Assembly: GCA_910577205.1 (NCBI GenBank) | Contig: CAJTMA010000007.1 | Coordinates: 5,373 to 69,372 of the forward strand | Direction: 5' to 3' | Length of the DNA: 64,000 nt | From: an uncultured Alphaproteobacteria bacterium | GTDB lineage: Bacteria > Pseudomonadota > Alphaproteobacteria > RF32 > CAG-239 | Made by a program: the position numbers and the translations under genes | Part shown: one piece after another, positions 20,930 to 34,489 of the stretch | How the letters are laid out: each line of letters starts with the position of its first letter | Position numbering within the stretch: position 1 is the stretch's first letter | The notes under the pieces: model-generated | The model's database searches: none | The model's input: only the letters and a program-made list of their open reading frames with translations | What the model was told of the DNA's origin: nothing

Positions 20930-21184
20930 TTACAAACTATAAACGTGTTTACGATAATTTTTTAATGAGGTCTGATACAGCAAAACCGGTGAAGCTTTTT
21001 TCATCCAATCTGCTCCATAAACCTGATTCAACTTAGTTTTATATTCGCGAGTCATTAATTCATCATAAATAGCCTGTTGTTCGTCAGTCAGGCGCGCAAA
21101 AGCATCCTGAAAAGAAATTTTATTTTTTTGGGCAATAACCAAACATAAAGTTTCAATTTCTTTTACAGATTGAGCATTCAGCAT
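20930..21184 (-). CDS. hypothetical protein (84 aa)
   Basis: ORF only. It sits at the left edge of the AT-rich island. Confidence 0.3.
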   Translation of the reverse strand: MLNAQSVKEIETLCLVIAQKNKISFQDAFARLTDEQQAIYDELMTREYKTKLNQVYGADWMKKASPVLLYQTSLKNYRKHVYSL

Positions 21185-21353
21185 TTGTTTAAGTCCTTCT
21201 TTAAGTTGAATAACAAATGCAATATACCACTTTTTGACAATTTCGTCAATAATGTGTTTTTGTCAAATTTGTGAAATTTTTGTTACATAAAGCATCCTAA
21301 TTGAGCTTTGCTGTTTCTTTTCTCGGGTTCTCATCCTACTTGTTCAGACATTA

Positions 21354-21387
21354 AAAAACTCCCCTCTGCTAGAGAGGGGAGTTTTTT
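21354..21387. terminator. bidirectional intrinsic terminator (aaaaaactcccctctgctagagaggggagtttttt)
   Basis: Perfect 9 bp GC-rich stem flanked by A6 and T6. It marks the left edge of the AT-rich island. Confidence 0.65.
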
Positions 21388-21618
21388 AATGGTGATGCAC
21401 TTTGCGAACCCATCGAACTGGTCTAACTGTTCGCAAAATGTTGTATATAAACGCCTTGAGATAGGAATATACTTCTGCGAATCAACCGATTTTTCTCTAG
21501 AATCACTTTTCTCGTATCTCGAACTTATCTAAATTCTAAAATATTTTTTAATATATCAAGAGTAAAATAATTCCTGTATTTTTTTGCATATTTCATAAAT
21601 TTATTTTAACAAATTCGG

Positions 21619-22005
21619 TTACATAATTTTTAAATCTTGTTTTATATTACTTATAAGTTTTTCTATTTTATTATAAATATTTTCATCTGGAGTAGTTTGT
21701 ATTTCTTTTTGCAATCTTATGTATTCTTTTGCGATTTTTGAGGATGCATATAACTTAATATAAGGAACTGTGGAATTTATTTTTTCTTTTACCTCATTGC
21801 AAGGATCGCCTTTAAGAAGCCATTTCAAATCTGTACCTATGGAAATAAGGCAATCAATAGCTTTTAAGTATGTTTCTTCCCGTTTCCTAAGGATATATAT
21901 TTCTTGTTCTCTGGCACTTTTTAGATAATCAATAAACAATGTAAAAAAAGCTGTAATAAGTGAACCAATTATTACACCTATCAAACCAATTATAGCCTCA
22001 TCCAT
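21619..22005 (-). CDS. hypothetical membrane-anchored protein (128 aa, one N-terminal TM)
   Basis: N-terminus IIGLIGVIIGSLITAFFTLFIDYL. Located 30 bp downstream of the NucC-like gene in AT-rich DNA. Confidence 0.4.
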   Translation of the reverse strand: MDEAIIGLIGVIIGSLITAFFTLFIDYLKSAREQEIYILRKREETYLKAIDCLISIGTDLKWLLKGDPCNEVKEKINSTVPYIKLYASSKIAKEYIRLQKEIQTTPDENIYNKIEKLISNIKQDLKIM

Positions 22006-22035
22006 TTCTTTATATCTCCGATATTTAAAATTTTA

Positions 22036-22743
22036 TTATTCAGAAAATCCATTAAAATAACGAGGAATATCCATAGCAGGAACCGTTCCCATTTGCTGTA
22101 ATTGATTTAATAATTCCATAAAAAATGATAATAGATAATGCTCTTTATTATTGCACCAAATGTACTTTCCATTATGGAATTTCCAGCAACAATCTTCAGC
22201 ACAACATCCAATATTCAATAATCCCACATTGTTATTTGAAATATTTTGTTTGATAAGGCATTTTTGCCATGAGTTTCTAGTCGTTAATAAACCACCTAAA
22301 ATAGTATGAGGTGTCCTTCCTTGAGTTTTTATACCAGCATTAAAAATAGAAGCACTTGTACGTTCTAAACTCCGAGCCGATGATACTTTTTTCATAGCGT
22401 ATTCAAAATTTTGTTTATTTAGCTCAGGCTTTACTTCAAATACCGCATAAACACTTTCAGCTGGAATAAAAACATTGTCACGACAGTGGAATAAAAAAGG
22501 TGAGAAATAATTATCAAATATTACAATATCTAATTGCTCACTAAGATTATTATTACAGTCAATTATGAATGCTTTTTTTACATCATAACGTTTAGGTAGA
22601 TGGTCTCTAAATAAATTAAGCCATTGTTCTTCAGTGTAATTTCCATTTTCTCCGGGATGCTCTATAGGATTTTGTATCAGAGAAGCTTTCATAGCTTCTT
22701 GTTTTCCCTTAAATAAGGTTTCCAATGTGACAGAACTCACCAT
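22036..22743 (-). CDS. PD-(D/E)xK restriction-endonuclease-fold protein, NucC-like candidate CBASS effector nuclease
   Basis: 235 aa. Putative catalytic segment LDIVIFDNYF...PAESVYAVFEVKPE (D..D...E-V-K) at residues about 72-105, with a Cys-rich C-terminal half. Start overlaps the upstream nucleotidyltransferase gene by 7 nt. Confidence 0.5.
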   Translation of the reverse strand: MVSSVTLETLFKGKQEAMKASLIQNPIEHPGENGNYTEEQWLNLFRDHLPKRYDVKKAFIIDCNNNLSEQLDIVIFDNYFSPFLFHCRDNVFIPAESVYAVFEVKPELNKQNFEYAMKKVSSARSLERTSASIFNAGIKTQGRTPHTILGGLLTTRNSWQKCLIKQNISNNNVGLLNIGCCAEDCCWKFHNGKYIWCNNKEHYLLSFFMELLNQLQQMGTVPAMDIPRYFNGFSE

Positions 22744-23525
22744 ATAATATCTCTCCAGTTTAATCCACCTAAAATAGTCAATCTATTATTTAGGCAATTA
22801 ACCGCTGTTTTTTGAATTATTAGCTTTTCTTGGCGGTTTAACTCATTTGAAATGATATTAGCAGAATTTCCAGGATCTATTATGATATCATCAATAAAAT
22901 CAGTAGCAAAATAATTTAAAACTTTAGTGAATTTTTCCTCAATATTATAAGCCCTATTATATTTTAAGGCATTTATTGTTGCAAATTCAATTAATACAGA
23001 AGGGCATTCAATAGAATGACAATTTCTCCATATTTTAACTAATTTAATAACATCCTGATAAAAAGATTTTTGTATAGTATTGATTTGTAAGCTGACATTA
23101 GTCTGTGTCCGTCGTCCCGTTTTGGATTGATATAGCCAATGGTAACTAGAACCATAAGGCTGTGCTTTAGCTGGGACTAAATCGACATTAATTGGTTGAC
23201 CATTCTTATTTAAATCAATACCAATAGAAACATTTTGTTTCCTTGGATGAAAATTTTTTTCAACCATTTTATTATATAATGTATCGTAAATATCTTCACA
23301 GCTAGTTGGACACTCGTGTTTTATAGATATAAAAATATCAATATCCGATTTTCCTTTTATGGAAGTTCCTTTAGCAGAGGAACCAGATAAAAATATATCT
23401 CTGATATAAGTATTACCCCATTCAGTTAGAGTAGGACGCAAAAATGCTAACACTTCATTATAGAGGTAAGTGTTATTTACATAATATTTTTGTAATACTT
23501 CGTTTAGATAAGACATTTGCTTCAT
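22737..23525 (-). CDS. minimal CD-NTase/SMODS-like nucleotidyltransferase (candidate cyclic-oligonucleotide synthase)
   Basis: 262 aa. GSSAKGTSIKGKSDIDIF fits GS-x11-DhDh (Pol-beta/cGAS-DncV-like NTase motif). The third acidic residue lies in NVDLVPA. A downstream LVKIWRN helix follows. Confidence 0.55.
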   Translation of the reverse strand: MKQMSYLNEVLQKYYVNNTYLYNEVLAFLRPTLTEWGNTYIRDIFLSGSSAKGTSIKGKSDIDIFISIKHECPTSCEDIYDTLYNKMVEKNFHPRKQNVSIGIDLNKNGQPINVDLVPAKAQPYGSSYHWLYQSKTGRRTQTNVSLQINTIQKSFYQDVIKLVKIWRNCHSIECPSVLIEFATINALKYNRAYNIEEKFTKVLNYFATDFIDDIIIDPGNSANIISNELNRQEKLIIQKTAVNCLNNRLTILGGLNWRDIIW

Positions 23526-23604
23526 CCTAATGATATTAATCGTATATATTTATATTATTAAAATAAAGATACAAGCTTCAAATCTTTTTTGAGAGGTGTT
23601 GTAT

Positions 23605-23982
23605 CTAGTCATCTAGACCGTTACTTTTGAGGAATTCTTTGAGCCTTTCCCGGTTTTCATTTTCCTGATCACCCTTATAATAAATCTCAATAAATGAAAT
23701 CAGTTGTTTTTCTTCTTCCCAAACAAAAATAACCCGAATGCCAGATGCAGCTCCTTTTCCCTTTAACGACATACATGAGAATTTACGAACTTTATTTGCT
23801 GTATAATTTTCTCCGCAACACCCTTCTATTGGAACAATGGCATTAGAAACTATTTTATGAATATACAAGGCTTCAATACTGGCCCTTTTCATAATTTCAA
23901 AATCATTAGGTAAAGTTCTGAAGCGTTTTGTGAGTTTCTTAAAATCTTTATCAAATTCAGGAATAGTCAGATAGTTAAGCAT
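23605..23982 (-). CDS. RelE/ParE-superfamily toxin (PanT-like candidate)
   Basis: C-terminal GIRVIFVWEEEKQLISFIEIYYKGDQEN matches the RelE/ParE hallmark. Start chosen at MLNYLTIPEF. The ORF track extends further upstream, so the start is uncertain. Confidence 0.55.
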   Translation of the reverse strand: MLNYLTIPEFDKDFKKLTKRFRTLPNDFEIMKRASIEALYIHKIVSNAIVPIEGCCGENYTANKVRKFSCMSLKGKGAASGIRVIFVWEEEKQLISFIEIYYKGDQENENRERLKEFLKSNGLDD

Positions 23983-24748
23983 ATTCTTCGTCATACTCCC
24001 GTTGAGATGTCTCGGCAGTTCTATAAAAAACGCTTTCATATTCAAGAATTTCCTTGTCCTTTGCAATAATCCAAGGAATGTCTTTATGGGAAAAATCAGA
24101 TAACTCTTTACCTGTTTTATCTGATAGACGTTCTAGTTCTTTATCAATATGTCTTAATTCTTGGGCAGAAAGCAAAGATAAATTAGGCTCCTTAATTGGA
24201 AGATATTTCGTTTGATCTTTCTTAAAATATTTTGTTTTAACTTCTTCTAGTTCTCCGTTTTTTTCCATTTCCTGAATAAGTTTTGCAAAATCCACAGGAG
24301 TAGGACCGTAAGTGTTTTTAATATATTTTAACCCCATAAGCTGTTCCTCATAAAGCTCATAATAGTCAAAATCAATAAAATATAACAACTTATAAATAAC
24401 GGTTTGACCAACATTAGGTTTGGCACCAACTTTATTAAGAATATAAAGTAAAACTTGTTTAAATTTTGTAATATTTTCCCGAGGAATATCAATACGAATA
24501 TCGTTTTGAGTGGAGGAAACAACTTTTTCTATAATGTTATATGTCGGCCTGTTTGGCATTTTATTATCAATAATACACGAGTAATCGACATCAAAAATAT
24601 CCGCTAATTTTTTAATGATATCGATGGGAAGATTGTTTTCTCCATTTTCATATTTGCTTAAGGTTTGGCGCGTTATTCCTAACTGAGACGCCAAATCGTC
24701 CTGTGAGATATTTTTTTCGTCTCTCAGGACTTTCAAAATTTTAAACAT
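23975..24748 (-). CDS. HTH-XRE plus Panacea (DUF4065) domain antitoxin-like protein (PanA-like)
   Basis: 257 aa. N-terminal HTH_3 (LASQLGITRQTLSKYENGEN). Central KLLYFIDFDYY...YGPTPVDF resembles the DUF4065/SocA-type signature. Confidence 0.6.
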   Translation of the reverse strand: MFKILKVLRDEKNISQDDLASQLGITRQTLSKYENGENNLPIDIIKKLADIFDVDYSCIIDNKMPNRPTYNIIEKVVSSTQNDIRIDIPRENITKFKQVLLYILNKVGAKPNVGQTVIYKLLYFIDFDYYELYEEQLMGLKYIKNTYGPTPVDFAKLIQEMEKNGELEEVKTKYFKKDQTKYLPIKEPNLSLLSAQELRHIDKELERLSDKTGKELSDFSHKDIPWIIAKDKEILEYESVFYRTAETSQREYDEEYA

Positions 24749-24791
24749 TTTAAGCTCCTATTTATTATTTATTTGAATATAATACAAAAAC

Positions 24792-24815
24792 GTTAAAATG
24801 TCAATATATTTTAAC
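24792..24815. promoter_or_regulatory. inverted repeat gttaaaat-N8-attttaac upstream of the HTH-Panacea gene (putative autoregulatory operator)
   Basis: Perfect 8 bp arms in the promoter region, with a ttgaatataat -10-like element nearby. Confidence 0.3.
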
Positions 24816-24942
24816 ACATAGGTGTAAGCGGAGTTTAACTTGAATTTGTAGATAAAAAACTCAACCAATCTTTAGGAATGCAAATACTTTTTAATTTTTT
24901 ATATCCGTATTGTATCAAATAATATATTATAAAAAATCTTTC

Positions 24943-26337
24943 CTATTCATCATTTGATAAATATTCCATTTTTTGTTTTAAGTATGGAATTATTCTTTGA
25001 GCATCTATTCCAAATCTACTATCAAGATCATCATGCAGTTGATATACCTTATGATAATCAGTTAGTTCTTTTAGAATTTCATCTTGTGTTATTGGCGTAT
25101 TGGGATTAGTTTGCTTTTCGATATTAAGTTGAGTATTTTTTTCTTTCAACTCATTAATTTTTTTGCATAGATCATTAAAAGGAATCATAGCCATCATTAA
25201 ACAATGTTTTAAACATTTTATATTTTGATCATTTGCATTAACTATTTTTTCAAGTTCCTTCCATAAATCATAAAAAGATATTCTTTCTATGTTTTGGTAG
25301 ATTGAGTATTTTTTATGTTTTAAAACCATTAAGAGTGCAAGTATAGGGCTCATTTTTAAATAATTATCAGGTACAACTTTTTGTATAATTGCAATATCTG
25401 TAAAACATTGGCTTATTTCTCGTAACGATAAATTATACCCATCTGCCAAAATAGAAAAATAATCACAATAACAATTCCATCCGTTTATTATACTATTAGC
25501 ATCATAAGCTTTTTGATTTTTTATACCAAATTTATTCATTAATACTTTGCAAAAAGCTTTTCTATTAGGTTTGGGTAAATGTAATTCTAAATCAACAAAT
25601 CTTTTAAGATAGCCTTCACTATCCATATCAGAACCATATAAAGCTGAAATAGTATGTTTTAATTGTGTCCTATCAATTCCTAAAATAAATATGACATTAG
25701 GGATATCAAATATATGTTTAATTGTTTCTAATACTTCAACAGCATATGTTGGACGACATCTTTCTAATTCATCGACAAATATAAACAGTTTATTATCTTT
25801 TATTTTCTCACAAAGCGTATTTCGGAAATCATTGATAAGTTTTTGTTTGGCTTCATATTGTTCAATTTTATTATCGGGATTTACAATTTGTAATAGCTTA
25901 TCTAATGTACTTTCAGGTCCGCCAACACATTCAATAATCAAATTGCCACAATTTTTTATAGACTTTAATAGTCCTATACTTTTTTCTTTGAGTATTGTAC
26001 CAATACTTTCTGGGAATGAATCTATAATTGTTTTTATAAATGGAACCATAGGGTCTTTTTCCCAATCTGTATTCCATGCATTAAAAAAAGCAACCTGATA
26101 TCCATCTTTTTTTAATTGTTCTCGCCATCTGCTCAGAAAAAAACTTTTTCCCATGCCATATGAAGCATCTACAGAAACGACAAAAGGTTGTTCAACATCC
26201 GCTAATATGCGGGTAAAATCTTCCGCAACTTCTTTGCGGTTAAGAATATCATCTTTCCAAATATCTTGTGTATCAATTTCTAGATCCTGAATTTTTTGGC
26301 AAATACTCATATCGTTTCCTTTTATTGCTATCAACAT
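24943..26337 (-). CDS. KAP-family P-loop NTPase
   Basis: 464 aa. Walker A SYGMGKSFF followed by the FNAW motif typical of KAP NTPases, then a Walker B region IFVDELERC. Confidence 0.7.
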   Translation of the reverse strand: MLIAIKGNDMSICQKIQDLEIDTQDIWKDDILNRKEVAEDFTRILADVEQPFVVSVDASYGMGKSFFLSRWREQLKKDGYQVAFFNAWNTDWEKDPMVPFIKTIIDSFPESIGTILKEKSIGLLKSIKNCGNLIIECVGGPESTLDKLLQIVNPDNKIEQYEAKQKLINDFRNTLCEKIKDNKLFIFVDELERCRPTYAVEVLETIKHIFDIPNVIFILGIDRTQLKHTISALYGSDMDSEGYLKRFVDLELHLPKPNRKAFCKVLMNKFGIKNQKAYDANSIINGWNCYCDYFSILADGYNLSLREISQCFTDIAIIQKVVPDNYLKMSPILALLMVLKHKKYSIYQNIERISFYDLWKELEKIVNANDQNIKCLKHCLMMAMIPFNDLCKKINELKEKNTQLNIEKQTNPNTPITQDEILKELTDYHKVYQLHDDLDSRFGIDAQRIIPYLKQKMEYLSNDE

Positions 26338-26409
26338 CTGTTAAATTAACACAAAATTTTATCTGATAAACTTTAATTTATTAGATATTAAAAGCTTTGT
26401 AGCTAAAAC

Positions 26410-27715
26410 AGCACCAGATTTGGTGCTGTTTAATAATAGATATTCCTTTGAAATACAATAAAATTCTCTTGTAAATATTAATGCAAAGGAGAATAAAAAT
26501 GGGAATGTCAAAATTTACTCAGGAAATTAAAAGTGAAATTGCAGAAAAATACAAAAAAGGAGCGGATGTTATTTTGTTGTGCCAAGAATATGGCATCTCC
26601 AGAAGTTACCTATACAGGATTGTCAAGCTAAAAAAGAAACATCGAAATCCGCATCAAAAAAGCACATATACCCTCTGGGATATAGAATTTATGAAAAGAG
26701 AGTTGATGACGCTTAAAACAGAAAATGAGATTTTCAGAAAAAGCGGTTGTGGATTGAGTGCTTCTAATGATGAGAAAATAGCCGTAGTTGAAAAGTTAAA
26801 AGATGAATATTCCATACATATCATTTGTAAAACGTTAGGATTACTAAAATCAACATATTATCACAGAATAATGAGGGCTCCGGAAAAGAAATGGTATGAA
26901 ATTCGCAATGAAACGCTTAAGCCCGAGATTCTTGAAATATTTAAAGAGAGCAAAGAACGTTTCGGAGCTCCCAAGATAAAAATAAAATTGGAAGAAAAGG
27001 GGATCGCGGCAAGTATTGAAACTGTTGCGAAACTAATGAAAGAAATGGGATTGATTTGCAAACAGAATTGTGTAAAGAAACATAATCCGACAAAAAACTA
27101 TTATGCATCTCCTCTAAACATATTAGAACGAAATTTCAATCCGGATGCTCCAAACAAGTGTTGGGTAAGCGACATCTCTTATATGAATACTGATGGAGGA
27201 TGTTGTTATATCTGTGTTGTGTTGGAGCTTTTTTCAAGAAAAGTTATTGCATATAATGTTTCTGACAGAATTGATACAGATTTGGTTTTAACAACTTTTG
27301 ACAAAGCGTATTTTGACAGGGGCAATCCTAAAAATCTGATTTTTCATTCAGACCAAGGAACACAATATACTTCTTCTAGATTCCAATATGCCTTACAGAA
27401 GAACAATGTTCGTCAATCGCTTTCAAAACCGGGAACGCCGTATGACAATGCGGTAATGGAACGATTTTTCAAATCGATAAAATATGAGTGTTTAAAACAT
27501 AAAACCTTTCAAAACATAGATGAATTGAGGACAACTGTTGAAGAATATATAAATTATTACAACGGAATGAGACCGATGAAAACGCGGGAAAATCTGCCTC
27601 CTAATGAATTTGAACGGCGATATTTTGAGAAAACGGCGTGTTAAGATTATGATTTAAACGAATAAAGCTCCGTAAAACGGAGCTTTATTTTGTAGACCTA
27701 GTCTACTAAAAAGAG
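26410..27715 (+). mobile_element. IS3-family insertion sequence (approximate boundaries)
   Basis: Contains a single fused transposase ORF. Terminal inverted repeats could not be defined by eye; both flanks share a ttgtag motif. Confidence 0.35.
26481..27644 (+). CDS. IS3-family transposase (fused OrfAB, HTH plus DDE/rve integrase core)
   Basis: 387 aa. N-terminal HTH and leucine zipper (ELMTLKTENEIF), HTH_21-like region (ERFGAPKIKIKLEEKGIAASIETVAKLMKEMGL), and a DDE core (WVSDISY, HSDQGTQYTS, MERFFKSIKYE). Confidence 0.8.
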   Translation: MQRRIKMGMSKFTQEIKSEIAEKYKKGADVILLCQEYGISRSYLYRIVKLKKKHRNPHQKSTYTLWDIEFMKRELMTLKTENEIFRKSGCGLSASNDEKIAVVEKLKDEYSIHIICKTLGLLKSTYYHRIMRAPEKKWYEIRNETLKPEILEIFKESKERFGAPKIKIKLEEKGIAASIETVAKLMKEMGLICKQNCVKKHNPTKNYYASPLNILERNFNPDAPNKCWVSDISYMNTDGGCCYICVVLELFSRKVIAYNVSDRIDTDLVLTTFDKAYFDRGNPKNLIFHSDQGTQYTSSRFQYALQKNNVRQSLSKPGTPYDNAVMERFFKSIKYECLKHKTFQNIDELRTTVEEYINYYNGMRPMKTRENLPPNEFERRYFEKTAC

Positions 27716-27740
27716 TCTAAAAAAGCCTCTTACTTACAAA

Positions 27741-27816
27741 TGGTGAGCGCGTCGGGATTCGAACCCGAGACCCTTTGATTAAAAGTCAAATGCTCTACCA
27801 GCTGAGCTACGCACCC
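27741..27816 (-). tRNA. tRNA-Lys (anticodon TTT)
   Basis: Manual fold: acceptor GGGTGCG/CGCGCTC, D-arm GCTC..GAGC, anticodon stem TTTGA/TCAAA with loop CTTTTAA, T-arm TCGGG-TTCGAAT-CCCGA, and an encoded 3' CCA. Confidence 0.85.
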
Positions 27817-27988
27817 GTTAATTGAGATGAACTCAAACAACGAAGTGATATATAGAAGATAAAAAACACTTAGTCAACATAAAAAATGAAATTTATGCAA
27901 AAAAAATAAAATGTAGTATATTTGTTAATAATTATATGCTATCGTTTTTTCAAATTTTGATATTTTAACCAATTGAGGCAGGTAAATT

Positions 27989-28303
27989 ATGGTTCAAGCT
28001 AATAATTCCGAACAAGAAGGCAAATATGATATTTTGCAGAATGCAGCCGGCGAAATCCTAATTATCATCAAATATCATCAAGGAGGCCCGGAAAATCCGC
28101 GTTTCGTATATGATGGCGGTTCAACAGCTCTGCTTTATCGCAGCCGTGAAAGCGCAATTATGTTGGATAATATTAATGATAAAGCCAAAATGCCTTTGAA
28201 ATCCGTCAACGAGTTGTTGATTGTTGAAATTGAGGACGATGATGTGGCTCGTGAATATAAAGTTCCGGTCAGACATATTCAAAGCTTGGATAGATTTCTT
28301 TAA
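27989..28303 (+). CDS. hypothetical protein (104 aa)
   Basis: ORF followed by a strong terminator. No recognisable domain. Confidence 0.4.
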   Translation: MVQANNSEQEGKYDILQNAAGEILIIIKYHQGGPENPRFVYDGGSTALLYRSRESAIMLDNINDKAKMPLKSVNELLIVEIEDDDVAREYKVPVRHIQSLDRFL

Positions 28304-28310
28304 GCCATCT

Positions 28311-28456: not shown

Positions 28457-29056
28457 TTATACTCTTTTTTGCAATCTTGCTGGAACACCATAATAAATTC
28501 CCGGTTCAATCAAATCAGACACTACAACTGAACCAGCACCTATAATTACGTTATCACCTACGTTTATATCCGGCTTAATTGTTGTTCCTGCTCCAACGAG
28601 AACATTGCTGCCTATGCGGCATTTTCCACAAATTGTGCTATTAGGAGCGATATGCGTATAGTCACCAACAATTACCTGATGTTCAACAACAGCTCCGGTA
28701 TTTATGATGCAGCCTTTTCCGATTTGGGTTTCAACAGCGCAATAAGCGTTATGCGCGATAAAGCTTCCCTCACCTATTTGGCAACTGTCAGAAATATACG
28801 CATCTGGTGCAATGATTGTGACACTATTTAATGCACCGTAATCTGCTCTGGTCTGATTATCTCCTGAAGCGACATGAACAGCAGAAATATCTTCCAGCAG
28901 TTCAGTAATAACCGGAAAACCAAGAACTGTTTCACCAGGACGCCCGTATTTATCAACAAAGACTATCGATTTTGCACCGTTTGAGATTAAGACATCTGCG
29001 ACACTTCGCGCATGACCGCCACAACCAATTATGTAAGCTGTTTCAGATTGTTTCAT
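28457..29056 (-). CDS. NeuD/PglD-family hexapeptide-repeat sugar N/O-acetyltransferase
   Basis: 199 aa. N-terminal Rossmann-like YIIGCGGHARSV followed by left-handed beta-helix hexapeptide repeats. Confidence 0.7.
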   Translation of the reverse strand: MKQSETAYIIGCGGHARSVADVLISNGAKSIVFVDKYGRPGETVLGFPVITELLEDISAVHVASGDNQTRADYGALNSVTIIAPDAYISDSCQIGEGSFIAHNAYCAVETQIGKGCIINTGAVVEHQVIVGDYTHIAPNSTICGKCRIGSNVLVGAGTTIKPDINVGDNVIIGAGSVVVSDLIEPGIYYGVPARLQKRV

Positions 29057-29148
29057 TTATAGGGACTCCTTTTTGTCAAATCAGCCCCTATAAAATATAA
29101 AAATAAGCACTTACAAACAACAATTAAATAAAGAATATCCCCGTTATC

Positions 29149-30282
29149 TTAAACTTCCTTTATCAAATTTGCTAAATAGTTTCCTAAGGTTTCCATATTG
29201 GTTTGACTTTTAGCAATCAAGTCGCGAACGGGAATGGGCATATAAGCTTTAGCGACAATCGAACGCATTTGGGCACAAAGGTCTTGAGCATCTCCTGCAC
29301 GAAAATAGAGGATACGATCATAGACAACACCAAGGTTGGTTTTAATATCTGAAACGACAACAGGCACACCTAAAGCTGCGGCATCATAAACAGAACCTCC
29401 GCCTGGTCCGCCTTCAAACAGGGTTGTCTGAATGACAGCTGTTGCCCCTTTCATAATTTGCAATTGTTCTTCTTTGGGAATTAAGCCTAAGAATCTGACT
29501 TTATCTTCAATATTCAGCTCTTTTAGCAAATCTTTCAGTTCCCTGATATATTCCGGCCGGCGTCCGTCTTCCATTGCCCCGGTGAAGATAAATTCCATAT
29601 CTGCATCTGTTTTTAAATACTCGGCAAATGCACGAAAAGCTGTCGGATGGTCTTTATGAATCCAAAACTGGTTAGACATCATAAAATAACGCTTGGGAAG
29701 ATGATATTTTTTTATTTGCCGAGAATAATCTTTGTAATAGCATAAATCAATCTTCGGTGTATAAGGCAATACACAGATTTTCTCCGGAGAAGCCTTAAAA
29801 AATTTTATCAAATCATCTTTTACAGTTTCGGCATTAACGATAATTTTCTGCTGACAATCGACCACATTCTGAAAATAGGCATCTCGGGCTTTAATCTCAT
29901 CATCAGAAAAAAATTCCGGCAAATAACAATGCTGGCAATCATAGAGATAGGCAATAGTCTTGATATCGAGCAGCTTTGTTCCCATATAAGGTAAAACGAC
30001 ATCTAGATTATTTTTCAAAAACGCGCTAGCAAGAGATGAGAAATAAATAAATTTAATATTTTTAAATTCTTTAAAAATGCTTTTAGCTTGCCGTATTTCA
30101 CGCTGCTTAACAAAAAAACGTTTTATTCCCTTGAAATTCCGATAATTAATTACATCAAGCATAATAAATAATTCTAACTGTTGTTTTTTGGCAACACTTT
30201 GCAGAGAAAAAATAATATGTTTCAAAAAATCATTGGCACCGGAAAGGCCGGTAAAATTTTGCGTCAAAATGCCAACACGCAT
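29149..30282 (-). CDS. glycosyltransferase (GT1/GT4-like, GT-B fold)
   Basis: 377 aa. C-terminal E-x7-E-like region TTLFEGGPGGGSVYDAAALGVPVVVSD. Confidence 0.55.
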   Translation of the reverse strand: MRVGILTQNFTGLSGANDFLKHIIFSLQSVAKKQQLELFIMLDVINYRNFKGIKRFFVKQREIRQAKSIFKEFKNIKFIYFSSLASAFLKNNLDVVLPYMGTKLLDIKTIAYLYDCQHCYLPEFFSDDEIKARDAYFQNVVDCQQKIIVNAETVKDDLIKFFKASPEKICVLPYTPKIDLCYYKDYSRQIKKYHLPKRYFMMSNQFWIHKDHPTAFRAFAEYLKTDADMEFIFTGAMEDGRRPEYIRELKDLLKELNIEDKVRFLGLIPKEEQLQIMKGATAVIQTTLFEGGPGGGSVYDAAALGVPVVVSDIKTNLGVVYDRILYFRAGDAQDLCAQMRSIVAKAYMPIPVRDLIAKSQTNMETLGNYLANLIKEV

Positions 30283-30292
30283 TTCATATCTC

Positions 30293-30757
30293 CTATAGTC
30301 TTTTTATGCAAGATAAACGATCCGTTACAAAACCTAATTTTTGATACAGGGAAACTGCAGTTTTATTATCTGCCGACACATCAAGCGATATCTCGGCAAT
30401 TTGTAACTCTGCGGCCAAATCCATTACCGCTGCCATTAATTGTTTTCCTAATCCTTTGCCCGAAAATTCAGGAAGAACAGCAATATGGTTTAGATGTAAA
30501 CGCATTATCCCAAAACAATCTTTGGGGTAGACATAAGCCAAGCCGAGCATTTCCCCTGCGTCAAATAAGCCGAAAACAACAGCTTCTCCGGCGTTCAGAA
30601 AATCTGCGCATTGCTTTACTTTGTCCGCAATGAATTCGTTAGAAAAGACAGCGGCAGGAAATGAATGTTGAAAAGACTCTAAAAAAAGTTCCCTTATTGT
30701 TTCATCATAAACAGAAAAATCTTCTGATTTCAATTTTCTGATATTTATACCAGTCAT
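30293..30757 (-). CDS. GNAT-family N-acetyltransferase
   Basis: 154 aa. Acetyl-CoA binding motif VLPEFSGKGLGKQLM. Confidence 0.7.
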   Translation of the reverse strand: MTGINIRKLKSEDFSVYDETIRELFLESFQHSFPAAVFSNEFIADKVKQCADFLNAGEAVVFGLFDAGEMLGLAYVYPKDCFGIMRLHLNHIAVLPEFSGKGLGKQLMAAVMDLAAELQIAEISLDVSADNKTAVSLYQKLGFVTDRLSCIKRL

Positions 30758-31458
30758 ACCAGCTTTCCTTTGGTAACCATATTTTTGACGGTGTCAACAT
30801 CATTAAACATCAGCACATCGATAATTGACAAGAACGGAACAAACTCTTTCCCAAATTGGGGATAGGCTTCTATTTCTTTTTCTAAGAATTTTAAAGTTAA
30901 ATTTTGCGCCGCAAAATCTTCTCGGTTATAGAGATGCTGCCCGTTTATGTTGTTAATGTATGTTTCCCCATTTAATTTTTGGGTGATGTCAATGATTTTG
31001 CTTTGAGCATTAACATCACGGTTATAATCAATATCTGATGAAAACAACAATTCCGTAGTTATTCCCAGACGGGCGTTAAGGTGTCTGAGGCTATACTCAA
31101 TTAATTTCGGAACATTTCGGTTATCATAATTGACGACATCTTCAATGAGCGAAAATGTTTCCTTAAAATACGGCGCATGGCGATAGGCATTGGCAATCTT
31201 ATTTAAGTAGTCAGCTTTAAGCTCCGGATTTGACGTAAACGACACTTGGTTGATTAAATCCCGAGAGCCATGCTTATCGACAGCCAACGTTACTTTCGTT
31301 TCTTCACCATTTTGCAAAATCGTATGGCGATTAATCCAGCCTCTTATCCATTGAACATCATCATAAAGAACATATACATCCACTGCATTTATCAGTTGAA
31401 AGTAGCCAATATAAGGAAAAAGATATGGCTGCATTACGGCAATTTTTTTATTTGGCAT
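30754..31458 (-). CDS. WbqC-family protein (O-antigen sugar modification)
   Basis: 234 aa. N-terminal IAVMQPYLFPYIGYFQLI is characteristic of WbqC-like proteins. Confidence 0.65.
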   Translation of the reverse strand: MPNKKIAVMQPYLFPYIGYFQLINAVDVYVLYDDVQWIRGWINRHTILQNGEETKVTLAVDKHGSRDLINQVSFTSNPELKADYLNKIANAYRHAPYFKETFSLIEDVVNYDNRNVPKLIEYSLRHLNARLGITTELLFSSDIDYNRDVNAQSKIIDITQKLNGETYINNINGQHLYNREDFAAQNLTLKFLEKEIEAYPQFGKEFVPFLSIIDVLMFNDVDTVKNMVTKGKLV

Positions 31459-32542
31459 AAAATTCTCCTATTTTAGCGCAAATATAATCCACGTCTTTTT
31501 CTTCCAATGCCGGATAGGAGGGCAGATTAATACCGCGCAACGCAATATCTTCAGCTACGGCATGGCGTTCATATTTCTGCGCATAGACCGGCATGGTGTG
31601 AATCGGGTAAAATGTCGGACGGGTTTCAATTCCCTGCTCTTTCAGATAATTACGCAGTTCTTCGCGCTCGCTTTCACTATCGGCCAGAATTGAGCACATC
31701 CACCATGTATGGCGAACCTTGCCGACAGCGTCATGGAATTTGACCGGAAGATTTTTTAATTTTTCTTTATACCATTTGGCAACATTTTGCTTGCGGGCAA
31801 TAAAATCTTCCACCTGCTCAAACTGAGCCAAGCCAATGGCAGCCTGAATATTAGTCATCCGGTAATTATAGCCCATGGTATCATGCCAATATTCCCGATA
31901 TTTGGCCAAGCCCTGTCCTTTGAAATGCACCAAACGACCATACAAATAATCACTATTGGTTAAAACCATGCCGCCCTCACCGCAAGTAATGGTTTTATTG
32001 CCAAAGAATGAGAAGCAGGCGACATCGCCGAAAGAACCGACTTTTTTGCCTTTATATTCCGAGCCAATAGCCTCGGCGCAATCTTCAATAACAAAGAGAT
32101 TATGTTCTTTGGCAATAGCCATAATTGTATCCATATCGCAGGGATGCCCATAGAGGTGGACAACCATAATCGCTTTGGTTTTCGGCGTAATTTTGGCTTT
32201 GACATCTTCCGCATCCAACTGCCAAGTATCCGCCCGGCTGTCAGCAAAGACAGGCGTTGCGCCGACTTGCAAAATCGGATTAGCGGAGGCTATGTAGGTA
32301 AATGTCGGCACAATAACCTCATCCCCTTCTCCCAAACCCAGAGCAACCAAAGCCAAGTGAATGGCAACCGTTCCGTTGCACACGCCGGTGCCGTGTTTGA
32401 CGTCGATATAACCAGAAAAGGCTTTTTCAAAATCATTGACGAATTTTCCCTTTGATGAAATCCATGTTGAATCAAGGCATTCGTTCACATACTTTTTTTC
32501 ATTTCCGGTCAAGCTCGGCTGATAAACGGCATATTTATACAT
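31448..32542 (-). CDS. DegT/DnrJ/EryC1/StrS-family PLP-dependent sugar aminotransferase
   Basis: 364 aa. Fold-type I aminotransferase pattern with the FSFFGNKTITCGEGG (active-site Lys) region. Confidence 0.85.
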   Translation of the reverse strand: MYKYAVYQPSLTGNEKKYVNECLDSTWISSKGKFVNDFEKAFSGYIDVKHGTGVCNGTVAIHLALVALGLGEGDEVIVPTFTYIASANPILQVGATPVFADSRADTWQLDAEDVKAKITPKTKAIMVVHLYGHPCDMDTIMAIAKEHNLFVIEDCAEAIGSEYKGKKVGSFGDVACFSFFGNKTITCGEGGMVLTNSDYLYGRLVHFKGQGLAKYREYWHDTMGYNYRMTNIQAAIGLAQFEQVEDFIARKQNVAKWYKEKLKNLPVKFHDAVGKVRHTWWMCSILADSESEREELRNYLKEQGIETRPTFYPIHTMPVYAQKYERHAVAEDIALRGINLPSYPALEEKDVDYICAKIGEFYAK

Positions 32543-32600
32543 TCAGATATTCCTCCTAAAAGCTATACTATAAAAAAGCAGGATCAGTTTTTATCATCTA

Positions 32601-33434
32601 TCAGCCCCTTACCTTTAATGCCGGAATGAAACCGAAGAGATAATGACGAGATGTTTTATTAAAAGATATAATTCTCCATATCAAAAGCCCACAGAAATAA
32701 TAAGATTTGATTTTATGTGCAAGATTAATATGCTTTTTATAGATTGCAGAATGATCTTTTGCTTGACGGTCCTTATATTTTCGATTAGTGCTTAAACCAC
32801 CGAGTTCAAAATTAGCTATTATTTCATTCAAGTAAGAAACTTTTTTACCTGCAAACTTCCAAGCCCTAATATTGAATTCATAGTCAGCATAAATCGGATA
32901 TGCTAAATCATACCCTCCTAATTTTTCAAAAATTTTTTTATGATAAAAAATAACCTGATGGCAAATACCTTTACGAAATACACTTTTAGCATTTTGAGCA
33001 TAGCCATAGTAATTAACTGTATTACCTTCATGGTAATCACTTGTATCCTCTCCGCTTTCCGGATTTAGAAAAAAGATATCTCCGAAAACAATCAACGGCT
33101 GGGTCTCATTAAACCTATCAACCACTTTTTGGCAAACATCATCTGAATAAAAGCTATCATTAGAATTTAAAAAGTATATAATATCGCCGTGTGCTGCTTT
33201 AATACCTTTATTCATAGCATCATAGACACCCTTATCTGGCTCCGAAACCAAATAACCTAAAAGAGCCTCATACTCTTGAAATATTTTAACAGTATCATCG
33301 TTTGAACCGCCATCGACAGCAATAACTTCAATATTCTGATAGGTTTGCGATTTAATACTCTCCAAAGTTTTTCGCAAAGTAACTGCCGAATTCTTGGTTA
33401 CAACAATAATTGAGATTAAAGGATTATGCTTCAT
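32601..33434 (-). CDS. family 2 glycosyltransferase
   Basis: 277 aa. ISIIVVTKNSAVTLRKTLESIKSQTY...AVDGGSNDDT and a DxD region. Confidence 0.75.
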   Translation of the reverse strand: MKHNPLISIIVVTKNSAVTLRKTLESIKSQTYQNIEVIAVDGGSNDDTVKIFQEYEALLGYLVSEPDKGVYDAMNKGIKAAHGDIIYFLNSNDSFYSDDVCQKVVDRFNETQPLIVFGDIFFLNPESGEDTSDYHEGNTVNYYGYAQNAKSVFRKGICHQVIFYHKKIFEKLGGYDLAYPIYADYEFNIRAWKFAGKKVSYLNEIIANFELGGLSTNRKYKDRQAKDHSAIYKKHINLAHKIKSYYFCGLLIWRIISFNKTSRHYLFGFIPALKVRG

Positions 33435-34489
33435 TGTTTAATATACCATTCATAAAAGTCTTTGATACCTTGTTTGAGGGGGATTTTGGGTGTCCAGCCC
33501 AGAGATTTAATACGGGTAGCATCCATCATTTTGCGCGGTGTGCCGTTTGGTTTGGAAGTGTCATATTCCAGTTTTCCGGCAAAGCCCGTGGCTTCTTTAA
33601 CGATTTCAAACAAGTCTTTTAACTGAATATCATCCCCATTGGTGATATTGACGTGTTCTCCGATATCCTCATAGTCTTTATTTTCCATCAGGTAGACACA
33701 GGCATCAGCCAAATCGTCAGAGCTCATCAATTCACGATAAACAGAACCATCTCCCCAGAGAACAACCTTGTCCCGGAAAGCACCAACTTGATTCAAAGCC
33801 CATTCAAGCGAAGCATTATCGGTATAATTAACTTTCTCATCCAATCCCCAGCCTAATTTATATTTCTGCAAATCGGTGCGGATAGCTTCAAAATTATTTT
33901 CAGACAGCAGCTTAGCTAAATGGAAACGGCGCATAATCATCGGCAGCAAGTGTGCGGTTTCCATATTAAAATTATCGCCAATACCATATTGGTTTGTCGG
34001 CATAACCGAAATATAATTTGTGCCATATTGTTCATTGTAATAACGGCACATTTTTATTGCGGCAATTTTAGCCAAAGCATAAGCTTCATTGGTTTTTTCT
34101 AATTCCGAAGTGAGGAGGCAATCCTCTTTCATCGGCTGCGGCGCCAAACGCGGATAAATACAGGATGACCCCAAGTTCAAAAGTTTTTTAACCCCGGTGA
34201 GGTAAGAACTGTGAATAACGTTAGCATCTATCATCAAGTTTTGATAAATAAATTCCGCCGGATAGGTTTGGTTAGCCATAATCCCGCCGACTTTAGCCGC
34301 GGCCAGAAAGACGTAATCAGGTTTTTCTGCTTCAAAAAATGCTAATGTCGCCGCCTGATTGGTTAAATCCAATTCCTGAGAACTGCGGGTTATGATATTG
34401 GCATAACCCTTTTCTTTCAGTTTACGAACGATTGCCGAACCTACTAACCCTCTGTGGCCGGATACATAAATCTTCGCATCCTTTTCCAT
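33431..34489 (-). CDS. fcl: GDP-L-fucose synthase (GDP-4-keto-6-deoxy-D-mannose 3,5-epimerase/4-reductase)
   Basis: 352 aa. KIYVSGHRGLVGSAIVRKL Rossmann motif and YxxxK. Adjacent to gmd. Confidence 0.85.
   Translation of the reverse strand: MEKDAKIYVSGHRGLVGSAIVRKLKEKGYANIITRSSQELDLTNQAATLAFFEAEKPDYVFLAAAKVGGIMANQTYPAEFIYQNLMIDANVIHSSYLTGVKKLLNLGSSCIYPRLAPQPMKEDCLLTSELEKTNEAYALAKIAAIKMCRYYNEQYGTNYISVMPTNQYGIGDNFNMETAHLLPMIMRRFHLAKLLSENNFEAIRTDLQKYKLGWGLDEKVNYTDNASLEWALNQVGAFRDKVVLWGDGSVYRELMSSDDLADACVYLMENKDYEDIGEHVNITNGDDIQLKDLFEIVKEATGFAGKLEYDTSKPNGTPRKMMDATRIKSLGWTPKIPLKQGIKDFYEWYIKQ

Follow-up and report, generated by a model that had tools for sequence, protein, structure and literature searches.

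A short CD-NTase and a NucC nuclease encoded in an alphaproteobacterial AT-rich island form a very probable type I CBASS module

In a window of 64,000 nt (the whole stretch of DNA analysed) from an uncultured alphaproteobacterium, a short nucleotidyltransferase gene overlaps the gene of a restriction-like nuclease. The question raised by this locus is whether the two genes constitute a complete CBASS anti-phage system, type I CBASS being defined as a two-gene cyclase–effector operon. An initial annotation had read the pair as a possible, very compact, type I-like CBASS; the assignment as a type I module was supported by the present analysis, whereas the novelty of the arrangement had been overestimated, cyclase–NucC operons being both established and catalogued. 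As judged from sequence, predicted structures and analogy with characterised systems, the pair is very probably a type I CBASS anti-phage system, the cyclase of which would deliver cA3 to NucC.

Gene boundaries and island context

Both genes are located on the minus strand of the window. The ORF at 22737–23525 (262 aa) was assigned as a short CD-NTase (CBASS oligonucleotide cyclase), based on PADLOC, an AF2 model, PDB fold matches and an invariant triad. The ORF at 22036–22743 (235 aa) was assigned as a NucC-family effector and predicted cyclic-trinucleotide-activated DNA endonuclease, based on PADLOC, Pfam, phmmer and an AF2 model. As read from the sequence, the cyclase ORF ends with ...ATA TGG TGA and the NucC ORF starts with ATG GTG, the 7 nt ATGGTGA (22737–22743, minus strand) being common to both, an overlap implying that the two genes are likely to be translationally coupled. 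The two ORFs and their overlap were thus recovered as initially annotated, but the cyclase probably comprises 259 aa. An AGGA ribosome-binding site at 23528–23525 directly adjoins the first cyclase ATG and precedes the second (23516) by 8 nt, and identical or near-identical cyclase genes have mostly been called as 259 aa in databases; because of this spacing and these calls, the second ATG is more likely to be the true start. The upstream intergenic region (23517–23604, minus strand), analysed by sequence inspection and a consensus scan, further contains a weak sigma-70-like match, TTGAAG-16-AATAAT, from 23581 to 23554. Since this match scored 9/12, and since the sites found in the promoter and terminator scan were no commoner than in shuffled sequence, it is only suggestive of a promoter.

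The module is embedded in an island of 30% GC, with values of 0.27–0.32 over approximately 21,000–28,000 compared to 0.42–0.50 in the flanks. Strain collinearity and the GC profile delimit a conserved AT-rich block at 21990–28304 (not assigned to a strand), which comprises the CBASS module, a Panacea TA pair, a KAP NTPase, an IS and a tRNA-Lys. Upstream of the cyclase, the HTH-Panacea antitoxin gene (23975–24748) forms a TA pair with a small downstream ORF, followed by the genes of the KAP NTPase (24943–26337) and of an rve-family IS transposase (26481–27644) and by the tRNA-Lys (27741–27816). The AT-rich surroundings with IS, KAP NTPase and TA pair, noted from the outset, were therefore all located; the block is regarded as context, outside the CBASS mechanism. 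Collinearity with the window extends over 28304–21990 in three 96–97% identical strain variants (L001–L003), starting at 27418 in the shorter L003. Synteny between the strains ends at 21990, i.e. 46 nt past the NucC stop.

Two neighbouring genes were considered as additional components and rejected. A 128-aa ORF located just downstream (21619–22005), the N-terminus of which is hydrophobic, had no homologue in 89 related loci, and the strain synteny breaks at 21990, where the variants have a 465-aa ORF instead; because no homologue was present beside other family members, this ORF is regarded as variable cargo. The upstream HTH-Panacea gene was evaluated as a CapH-like regulator, but gave a weak PADLOC capH match restricted to the HTH (6e-5) and is not a conserved neighbour. 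Clustering of the neighbouring ORFs of 80 loci yielded no further conserved neighbour family. Six recurrent clusters of small ORFs (6 to 38 loci) look like shadow ORFs, since the example member of each sits inside the cyclase or the NucC gene, and were not accepted as partners.

Accessory genes known from other systems were searched for in the same regions. On the contigs carrying identical genes, no HORMA/TRIP13, Cap2/Cap3 (E1/E2/JAB) or Cas genes were found within 10 kb, no Pfam or PADLOC matches to the accessory genes of type II, III or IV CBASS were obtained among the neighbours of the module, and no CRISPR array was detected in the 64-kb window. The lack of HORMA/TRIP13, E1/E2 and SAVED partners, as initially described, was hence also seen among the neighbours and within 10 kb.

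The nucleotidyltransferase

Among the PADLOC models, the best match of the cyclase was Cyclase PDLC00803 (2.9e-73), with residues 1–262 aligned to profile positions 1–253 of 253, and 19 of the 21 PADLOC matches were CBASS cyclase models. As far as the PADLOC paper describes them, the models for cyclases and for effectors both derive from clusters of proteins in the CBASS catalogue of Millman et al. 2020. A match along all 253 positions of such a cyclase model indicates that the cluster of short cyclases has already been catalogued.

In an alignment of 58 homologues, residues G48, S49, D61, D63, D115, K164 and W166 were invariant, in agreement with the GS, DxD, third-acid and K..K.W motifs that had been recognised earlier; of these, G48-S49, D61, D63 and D115 are the predicted catalytic residues. 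The AF2 model (pLDDT 92, pTM 0.87) is free of disordered segments. Its closest PDB folds were E. coli CdnC and P. aeruginosa CdnD (E = 2e-12 to 5e-12, 18–23% identity, TM approximately 0.7 when normalised to the query), followed by other CD-NTases, OAS1 and cGAS, and the top 50 fold matches consisted of CD-NTases, OAS, cGAS, NF45/NF90 and Cid1. Both features by which a CD-NTase is recognised, the Pol-beta fold and the residues GS ... [D/E]xD ... D, are accordingly present.

General family databases gave a less specific result. The Pfam SMODS score (PF18144) was 23.1 and thus below the gathering threshold of 26.5, NTP_transf_2 being the only Pfam family above cut-off. In NCBIfam, CBASS_cyclase_a (NF041116) scored 71.6 at a cut-off of 200, and the CBASS cyclase equivalogs were far below. 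A precomputed SMODS match is present in most homologues of the cyclase, which is 45% identical to its nearest relative outside its own 90%-identity cluster. At 18–23% identity to CdnC/CdnD, the cyclase is a divergent branch. As a consequence of the sub-threshold SMODS and NCBIfam scores, public annotation says merely "nucleotidyltransferase": the NCBI name of the cyclase is "nucleotidyltransferase domain-containing protein", that of its partner "hypothetical" or "DUF6602". The sub-threshold SMODS and CBASS_cyclase_a scores, together with the low identity to CdnC/CdnD, were counted against the type I CBASS reading.

With the generic NTP_transf_2 as sole Pfam family above threshold and a TA pair immediately upstream, the protein could also be taken for an unrelated MenT/AbiEii-like nucleotidyltransferase toxin beside a restriction-like nuclease, an outcome that had been named at the start as the alternative to a CBASS cyclase. 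This reading is effectively refuted, given the predominance of CBASS cyclase models among the PADLOC matches, the lack of any MenT or AbiEii protein among the top 50 folds and in the PADLOC, Pfam and NCBIfam matches, and a partner that is unmistakably NucC.

Cyclases of this family are approximately 250–280 aa long, compared to 271–374 residues in the matched solved CD-NTase chains; the protein is indeed shorter than most CD-NTases, as the initial annotation had pointed out, but the difference is modest. CD-NTases of clades A, D and G have a large activation loop that can be cleaved by phage proteases, and a long disordered loop of this type was not seen in the cyclase model. CdnC and CdnD have been shown to make cAAA for NucC (Lau et al.), and their activity requires HORMA proteins plus DNA. 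That the closest characterised cyclases are HORMA-dependent, while HORMA is absent here, was likewise counted against the type I CBASS reading.

The nuclease and its ligand pocket

The 235 aa nuclease matched the PADLOC model Effector "Endonuclease (NucC)" PDLC00745 over its full length (2.2e-79) and Pfam DUF6602 at 2e-31, so that both proteins of the window match catalogue-derived PADLOC profiles, PDLC00803 and PDLC00745, full length. In phmmer searches, V. metoecus NucC (6uxf) was found at 3.6e-49 and the NucCs of E. coli and P. aeruginosa at approximately 1e-40. The AF2 model of the monomer (pLDDT 91) superimposed with a TM of 0.91 on 6uxf and of 0.88–0.90 on cAAA-bound E. coli and P. aeruginosa NucC (0.85–0.91 overall), the next-best folds being type II restriction enzymes with E > 0.01. 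The nuclease is NucC. For both proteins of the pair, the profile and structure comparisons hence bore out the initial reading, with full-length matches to CBASS cyclase and NucC effector models and predicted folds matching CdnC/CdnD and NucC.

Residues D72, E103 and K105 were invariant in 59 homologues and are aligned with Asp73, Glu104 and Lys106 of the E. coli NucC active site; the D/E/K signature with an Asp near position 72–73, noted initially, was thus verified. According to Lau et al., Asp73 of E. coli NucC is essential for catalysis and Glu104 coordinates Mg, Arg53, Tyr81 and Thr226 are essential for cAAA-dependent activation, and Val227 contacts adenine. In the window NucC, the cAAA phosphate contacts Arg53 and Thr226 are kept as R52 and T220, the main-chain contact to adenine by Val227 is kept as V221, and the adenine-stacking Tyr81 is conservatively changed to F80, a position occupied by Y in 35 and by F in 24 family members. 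Across the 59 homologues, the active-site and ligand-contact positions were either invariant or conservatively varied. The restriction-endonuclease-like fold with its ID-x30-E-x-K active site and the residues of the cAAA pocket, which characterise the NucC family, are hence present; the gate-loop latch is not.

This latch is formed in E. coli NucC by His136 and Tyr141, mutation of which abolishes activation (Lau et al.). In the window NucC, the gate loop comprises approximately residues 128–146, and the latch residues are replaced by N135 and T140. Within the family, the two positions vary, with H in 28/59 and Y in 10/59 sequences, and the closest alphaproteobacterial relatives carry a "CNG" loop motif in place of "HAGG". 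The window NucC is 53% identical to its nearest relative outside its own 90%-identity cluster. Judging from the alignment, the family is probably not strictly defined by the His/Tyr latch, and owing to the replacement of the latch residues the gating, or even the ligand, of the window NucC may be different. The change from His136/Tyr141 to Asn135/Thr140 was also counted against the type I CBASS reading.

The signal in the same architecture might accordingly be a molecule other than cA3 (e.g. cAAG, a 2'-5'-linked trinucleotide or a dinucleotide), read by a re-tuned NucC gate loop. Besides the replaced latch and the "CNG" loop of the closest alphaproteobacterial NucCs, a cyclase merely 18–23% identical to cA3 synthases and the weak response of E. 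coli NucC to cAA and cAAG are in favour of such a signal. Nevertheless, it is considered unlikely: the cAAA phosphate and adenine contacts are all kept (R52, T220, V221 and the aromatic F80), the position of the pocket on a three-fold axis favours a symmetric trinucleotide, and Serratia NucC, likewise without His/Tyr at the aligned latch positions, was solved in the cA3-bound state (7zgv). Since Serratia NucC binds cA3 without the latch, divergence at these positions is compatible with cA3, which remains the most probable ligand.

The best sequence and structure matches of the window nuclease were NucCs of type III CRISPR systems, i.e. those of Vibrio metoecus (6uxf/6uxg) and Serratia (7zgv/7zgw), with the V. 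metoecus protein as best sequence match among solved structures. That the nuclease acts, as in V. metoecus, for a type III CRISPR-Cas system encoded at another genomic site, with only an incidental cyclase at its side, is nonetheless very improbable. The margin of the V. metoecus match is small (38% identity vs 35–36% for CBASS NucCs), a CRISPR array is absent from the 64 kb and cas genes are absent within 10 kb, and cyclase and nuclease form a conserved, often translationally coupled pair that co-diverges, as detailed below. In contrast to CRISPR-associated NucC, the source of the signal in the window would be a CD-NTase and not Cas10.

Gene pairing, system class and proposed mechanism

Recurrence of the pair was assessed by scanning one genome for each species with a 12-sequence cyclase alignment as query, which yielded 168 cyclase relatives; pairing was counted in the 80 loci kept from these. 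The gene pairing is obligate in character, NucC being encoded directly downstream on the same strand in 68/80 loci and nearby on the opposite strand in 2/80, and absent in 10/80. The hosts include Alphaproteobacteria, Gammaproteobacteria, Bacillota, Cyanobacteria, Acidobacteriota, Chloroflexota, candidate-phyla-radiation bacteria and one archaeon, so the pair, as the initial annotation had anticipated for a genuine system, recurs across phyla. For each of four cyclase homologues (37–98% identity), the next gene downstream encodes DUF6602/NucC. Among the 68 pairs, the two genes mostly overlap or are separated by a few nt, and an identical 7-nt overlap was found in L001–L003 and in L005–L006. 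Pairwise distances of cyclases and NucCs were correlated with r = 0.82, a value reached in 0/999 permutations, as expected for a pair inherited and transferred as a single unit. Members of the cyclase family also reside on rhizobial and Cupriavidus conjugative plasmids, and no cyclase homologues were found in a phage genome collection.

Among the loci without NucC, at least two, L015 and L039, encode a catalogued CBASS "1TM" effector instead (1e-70 and 3e-62), and L019 contains a near-identical 172-aa ORF as a further candidate. Such exchange of the effector is a typical trait of CBASS.

The module thus consists of a CD-NTase and an adjacent, recognised effector without ancillary genes, the composition of type I CBASS. 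Because HORMA and TRIP13/Pch2, which are part of the operon in type III CBASS, are absent, it was not filed as type III despite a cyclase fold closest to CdnC/CdnD. The type III systems of E. coli MS115-1 and P. aeruginosa ATCC27853 (CdnC/CdnD + HORMA + TRIP13/Pch2 + NucC; Ye et al., Lau et al., 2019/2020) share with the window the effector family, including catalytic and cA3-contact residues, and their CdnC and CdnD are the closest folds to the window cyclase. They differ from the window in the presence of HORMA/Pch2, in a cyclase that is approximately 40–60 aa longer and only 18–23% identical, and, for E. coli NucC, in the His136/Tyr141 latch. Owing to the lack of HORMA/Pch2, the shorter and divergent cyclase and the changed latch, the activation cue must be different from that of type III CBASS. 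The operon of XpCdnC03 and NucC, a two-gene type I system shown experimentally to restrict phages (Richmond-Buccola et al., bioRxiv 10.1101/2023.05.21.541620), likewise combines a CD-NTase with NucC without accessory genes; it is compared here by gene layout alone, and membership of the window cyclase in clade C03 is not implied.

Given that CdnC and CdnD, structurally the closest to the cyclase, need HORMA and that the module resides in an IS-bearing island, it could be regarded as a decayed type III CBASS (CdnC/D + HORMA + TRIP13 + NucC) that has lost its regulators and its signalling. This is highly unlikely in view of the recurrence of the two-gene layout in 68/80 species-level genomes from many phyla, in which the ORFs are intact and the catalytic residues invariant, and of the co-divergence of cyclase and NucC. 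Moreover, the family length is consistent at approximately 250–280 aa, and neighbour clustering placed no HORMA/TRIP13 cluster near any member of the cyclase family. The two-gene layout is a stable architecture and not a product of decay.

For the type I CBASS module, the following mechanism is proposed, in which product, oligomeric state, phenotype and trigger are deduced by analogy with characterised systems. Upon infection, the 259-aa cGAS/DncV-like nucleotidyltransferase would be switched on, and its GS / DxD / D site would convert ATP to a cyclic oligonucleotide, most probably 3',3',3'-cyclic tri-AMP (cA3). This molecule would be bound in the three-fold pocket of a NucC trimer via R52, F80, T220 and V221, whereupon the gate loops would close and two NucC trimers would associate to a hexamer. 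The D72/E103/K105 sites of the hexamer would then cut dsDNA without sequence specificity, so that the cell's genomes would be destroyed and the infection aborted. In a more speculative and rather doubtful extension, the cyclases of approximately 250–280 aa might represent a HORMA-independent offshoot of CdnC/CdnD, maybe the smallest natural CD-NTase scaffold, with autonomous sensing, and the NucC gate loop might have been re-engineered and could read a signal other than cA3.

Taken as a whole, the short cyclase and NucC very probably form a real but ordinary type I CBASS, of a kind that has already been catalogued. The nearest characterised relatives of the cyclase need HORMA and the window cyclase occurs without it; the locus thereby offers a compact example for the question how minimal type I cyclases stay off and are then switched on, a question which is general to type I CBASS and does not newly arise from this locus. 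The main value of the finding is one of annotation: a widespread pair, named "nucleotidyltransferase" and "DUF6602/hypothetical" by NCBI, is recognisable as CBASS, and its annotation in this gut alphaproteobacterium and in over 160 further species can be amended accordingly.

Partners of the short cyclase in related loci

At three loci of related genomes, the place of NucC beside the short cyclase was taken by a protein of 172–185 aa with a hydrophobic N-terminus (L015, 5773–6291; L019, 1989–2507; L039, 4442–4999). The L015 and L039 proteins were matched by the PADLOC profile for the CBASS "1TM" effector (1e-70 and 3e-62, respectively) and, weakly, by a membrane protein associated with type III CRISPR, whose annotation gives a possible diverged CARF domain. 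The 1TM profile matches cover these two proteins, and a near-identical ORF lies beside the short cyclase of L019. In L039, the gene for this protein is located upstream of the cyclase gene.

An archaeal locus from a Bathyarchaeia MAG (L034, 1515–4028) carries two cyclases around one NucC. Here the short family member adjoins, in convergent orientation, a second SMODS cyclase of standard size (290 aa, PADLOC 3.6e-81) and a NucC of 280 aa on the opposite strand. For three cyanobacterial loci (L024, L033 and L079), no recognisable effector was found on either side of the short cyclase among the ORFs listed; in L079, the upstream side holds an ORF of 802 aa on the opposite strand.

Borders of the island

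Past NucC, an ORF of 128 aa with a hydrophobic N-terminus (21619–22005, minus strand) starts 30 nt beyond the nuclease stop codon and is followed by an ORF of 84 aa (20930–21184, minus strand); neither gave an informative family match in Pfam, PADLOC or NCBIfam. The same position is occupied by unrelated ORFs of 465, 117 and 193 aa in the near-identical strain variants, from which the window departs at a break point at 21990. At this edge, the island appears to have a slot for variable cargo.

Towards the other side, an rve-family IS transposase of 387 aa (381 aa in most relatives) is placed between the gene for a KAP-family NTPase and a tRNA-Lys(UUU) gene (transposase and tRNA together 26481–27816; tRNA 27741–27816, minus strand), the 3' end of which faces the AT-rich island. 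Outside the island, a polysaccharide or O-antigen-type cluster was located at 28457–34489 on the minus strand, comprising genes for glycosyltransferases, a DegT aminotransferase, WbqC, an acetyltransferase and epimerases. Strains with an identical CBASS island differ in the make-up of this cluster, as seen between contigs L090 and L092.

Further genes within the island

Immediately upstream of the cyclase gene and on the same (minus) strand, a gene of the HTH_3 and SocA/Panacea antitoxin type (257 aa) and a small ORF after it together span 23605–24748; the small ORF is 153 aa as listed, with a TTG start, and 125 aa in most database calls. The small ORF had no match in Pfam, PADLOC or NCBIfam, and the two genes probably form a TA pair of the Panacea type, the toxin of which is unclassified. 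Clustering of the neighbouring ORFs of related loci revealed no conservation of this pair beside other members of the short-cyclase family.

The KAP-family P-loop NTPase (464 aa; 24943–26337, minus strand), recognised by Pfam and PADLOC profiles, was matched over almost its full length by the PADLOC candidate single-gene defence system PDC-S20 (1.3e-99), with weaker matches to the PifA and QatA models of PADLOC. With this NTPase, the CBASS-bearing island probably holds a second defence gene.
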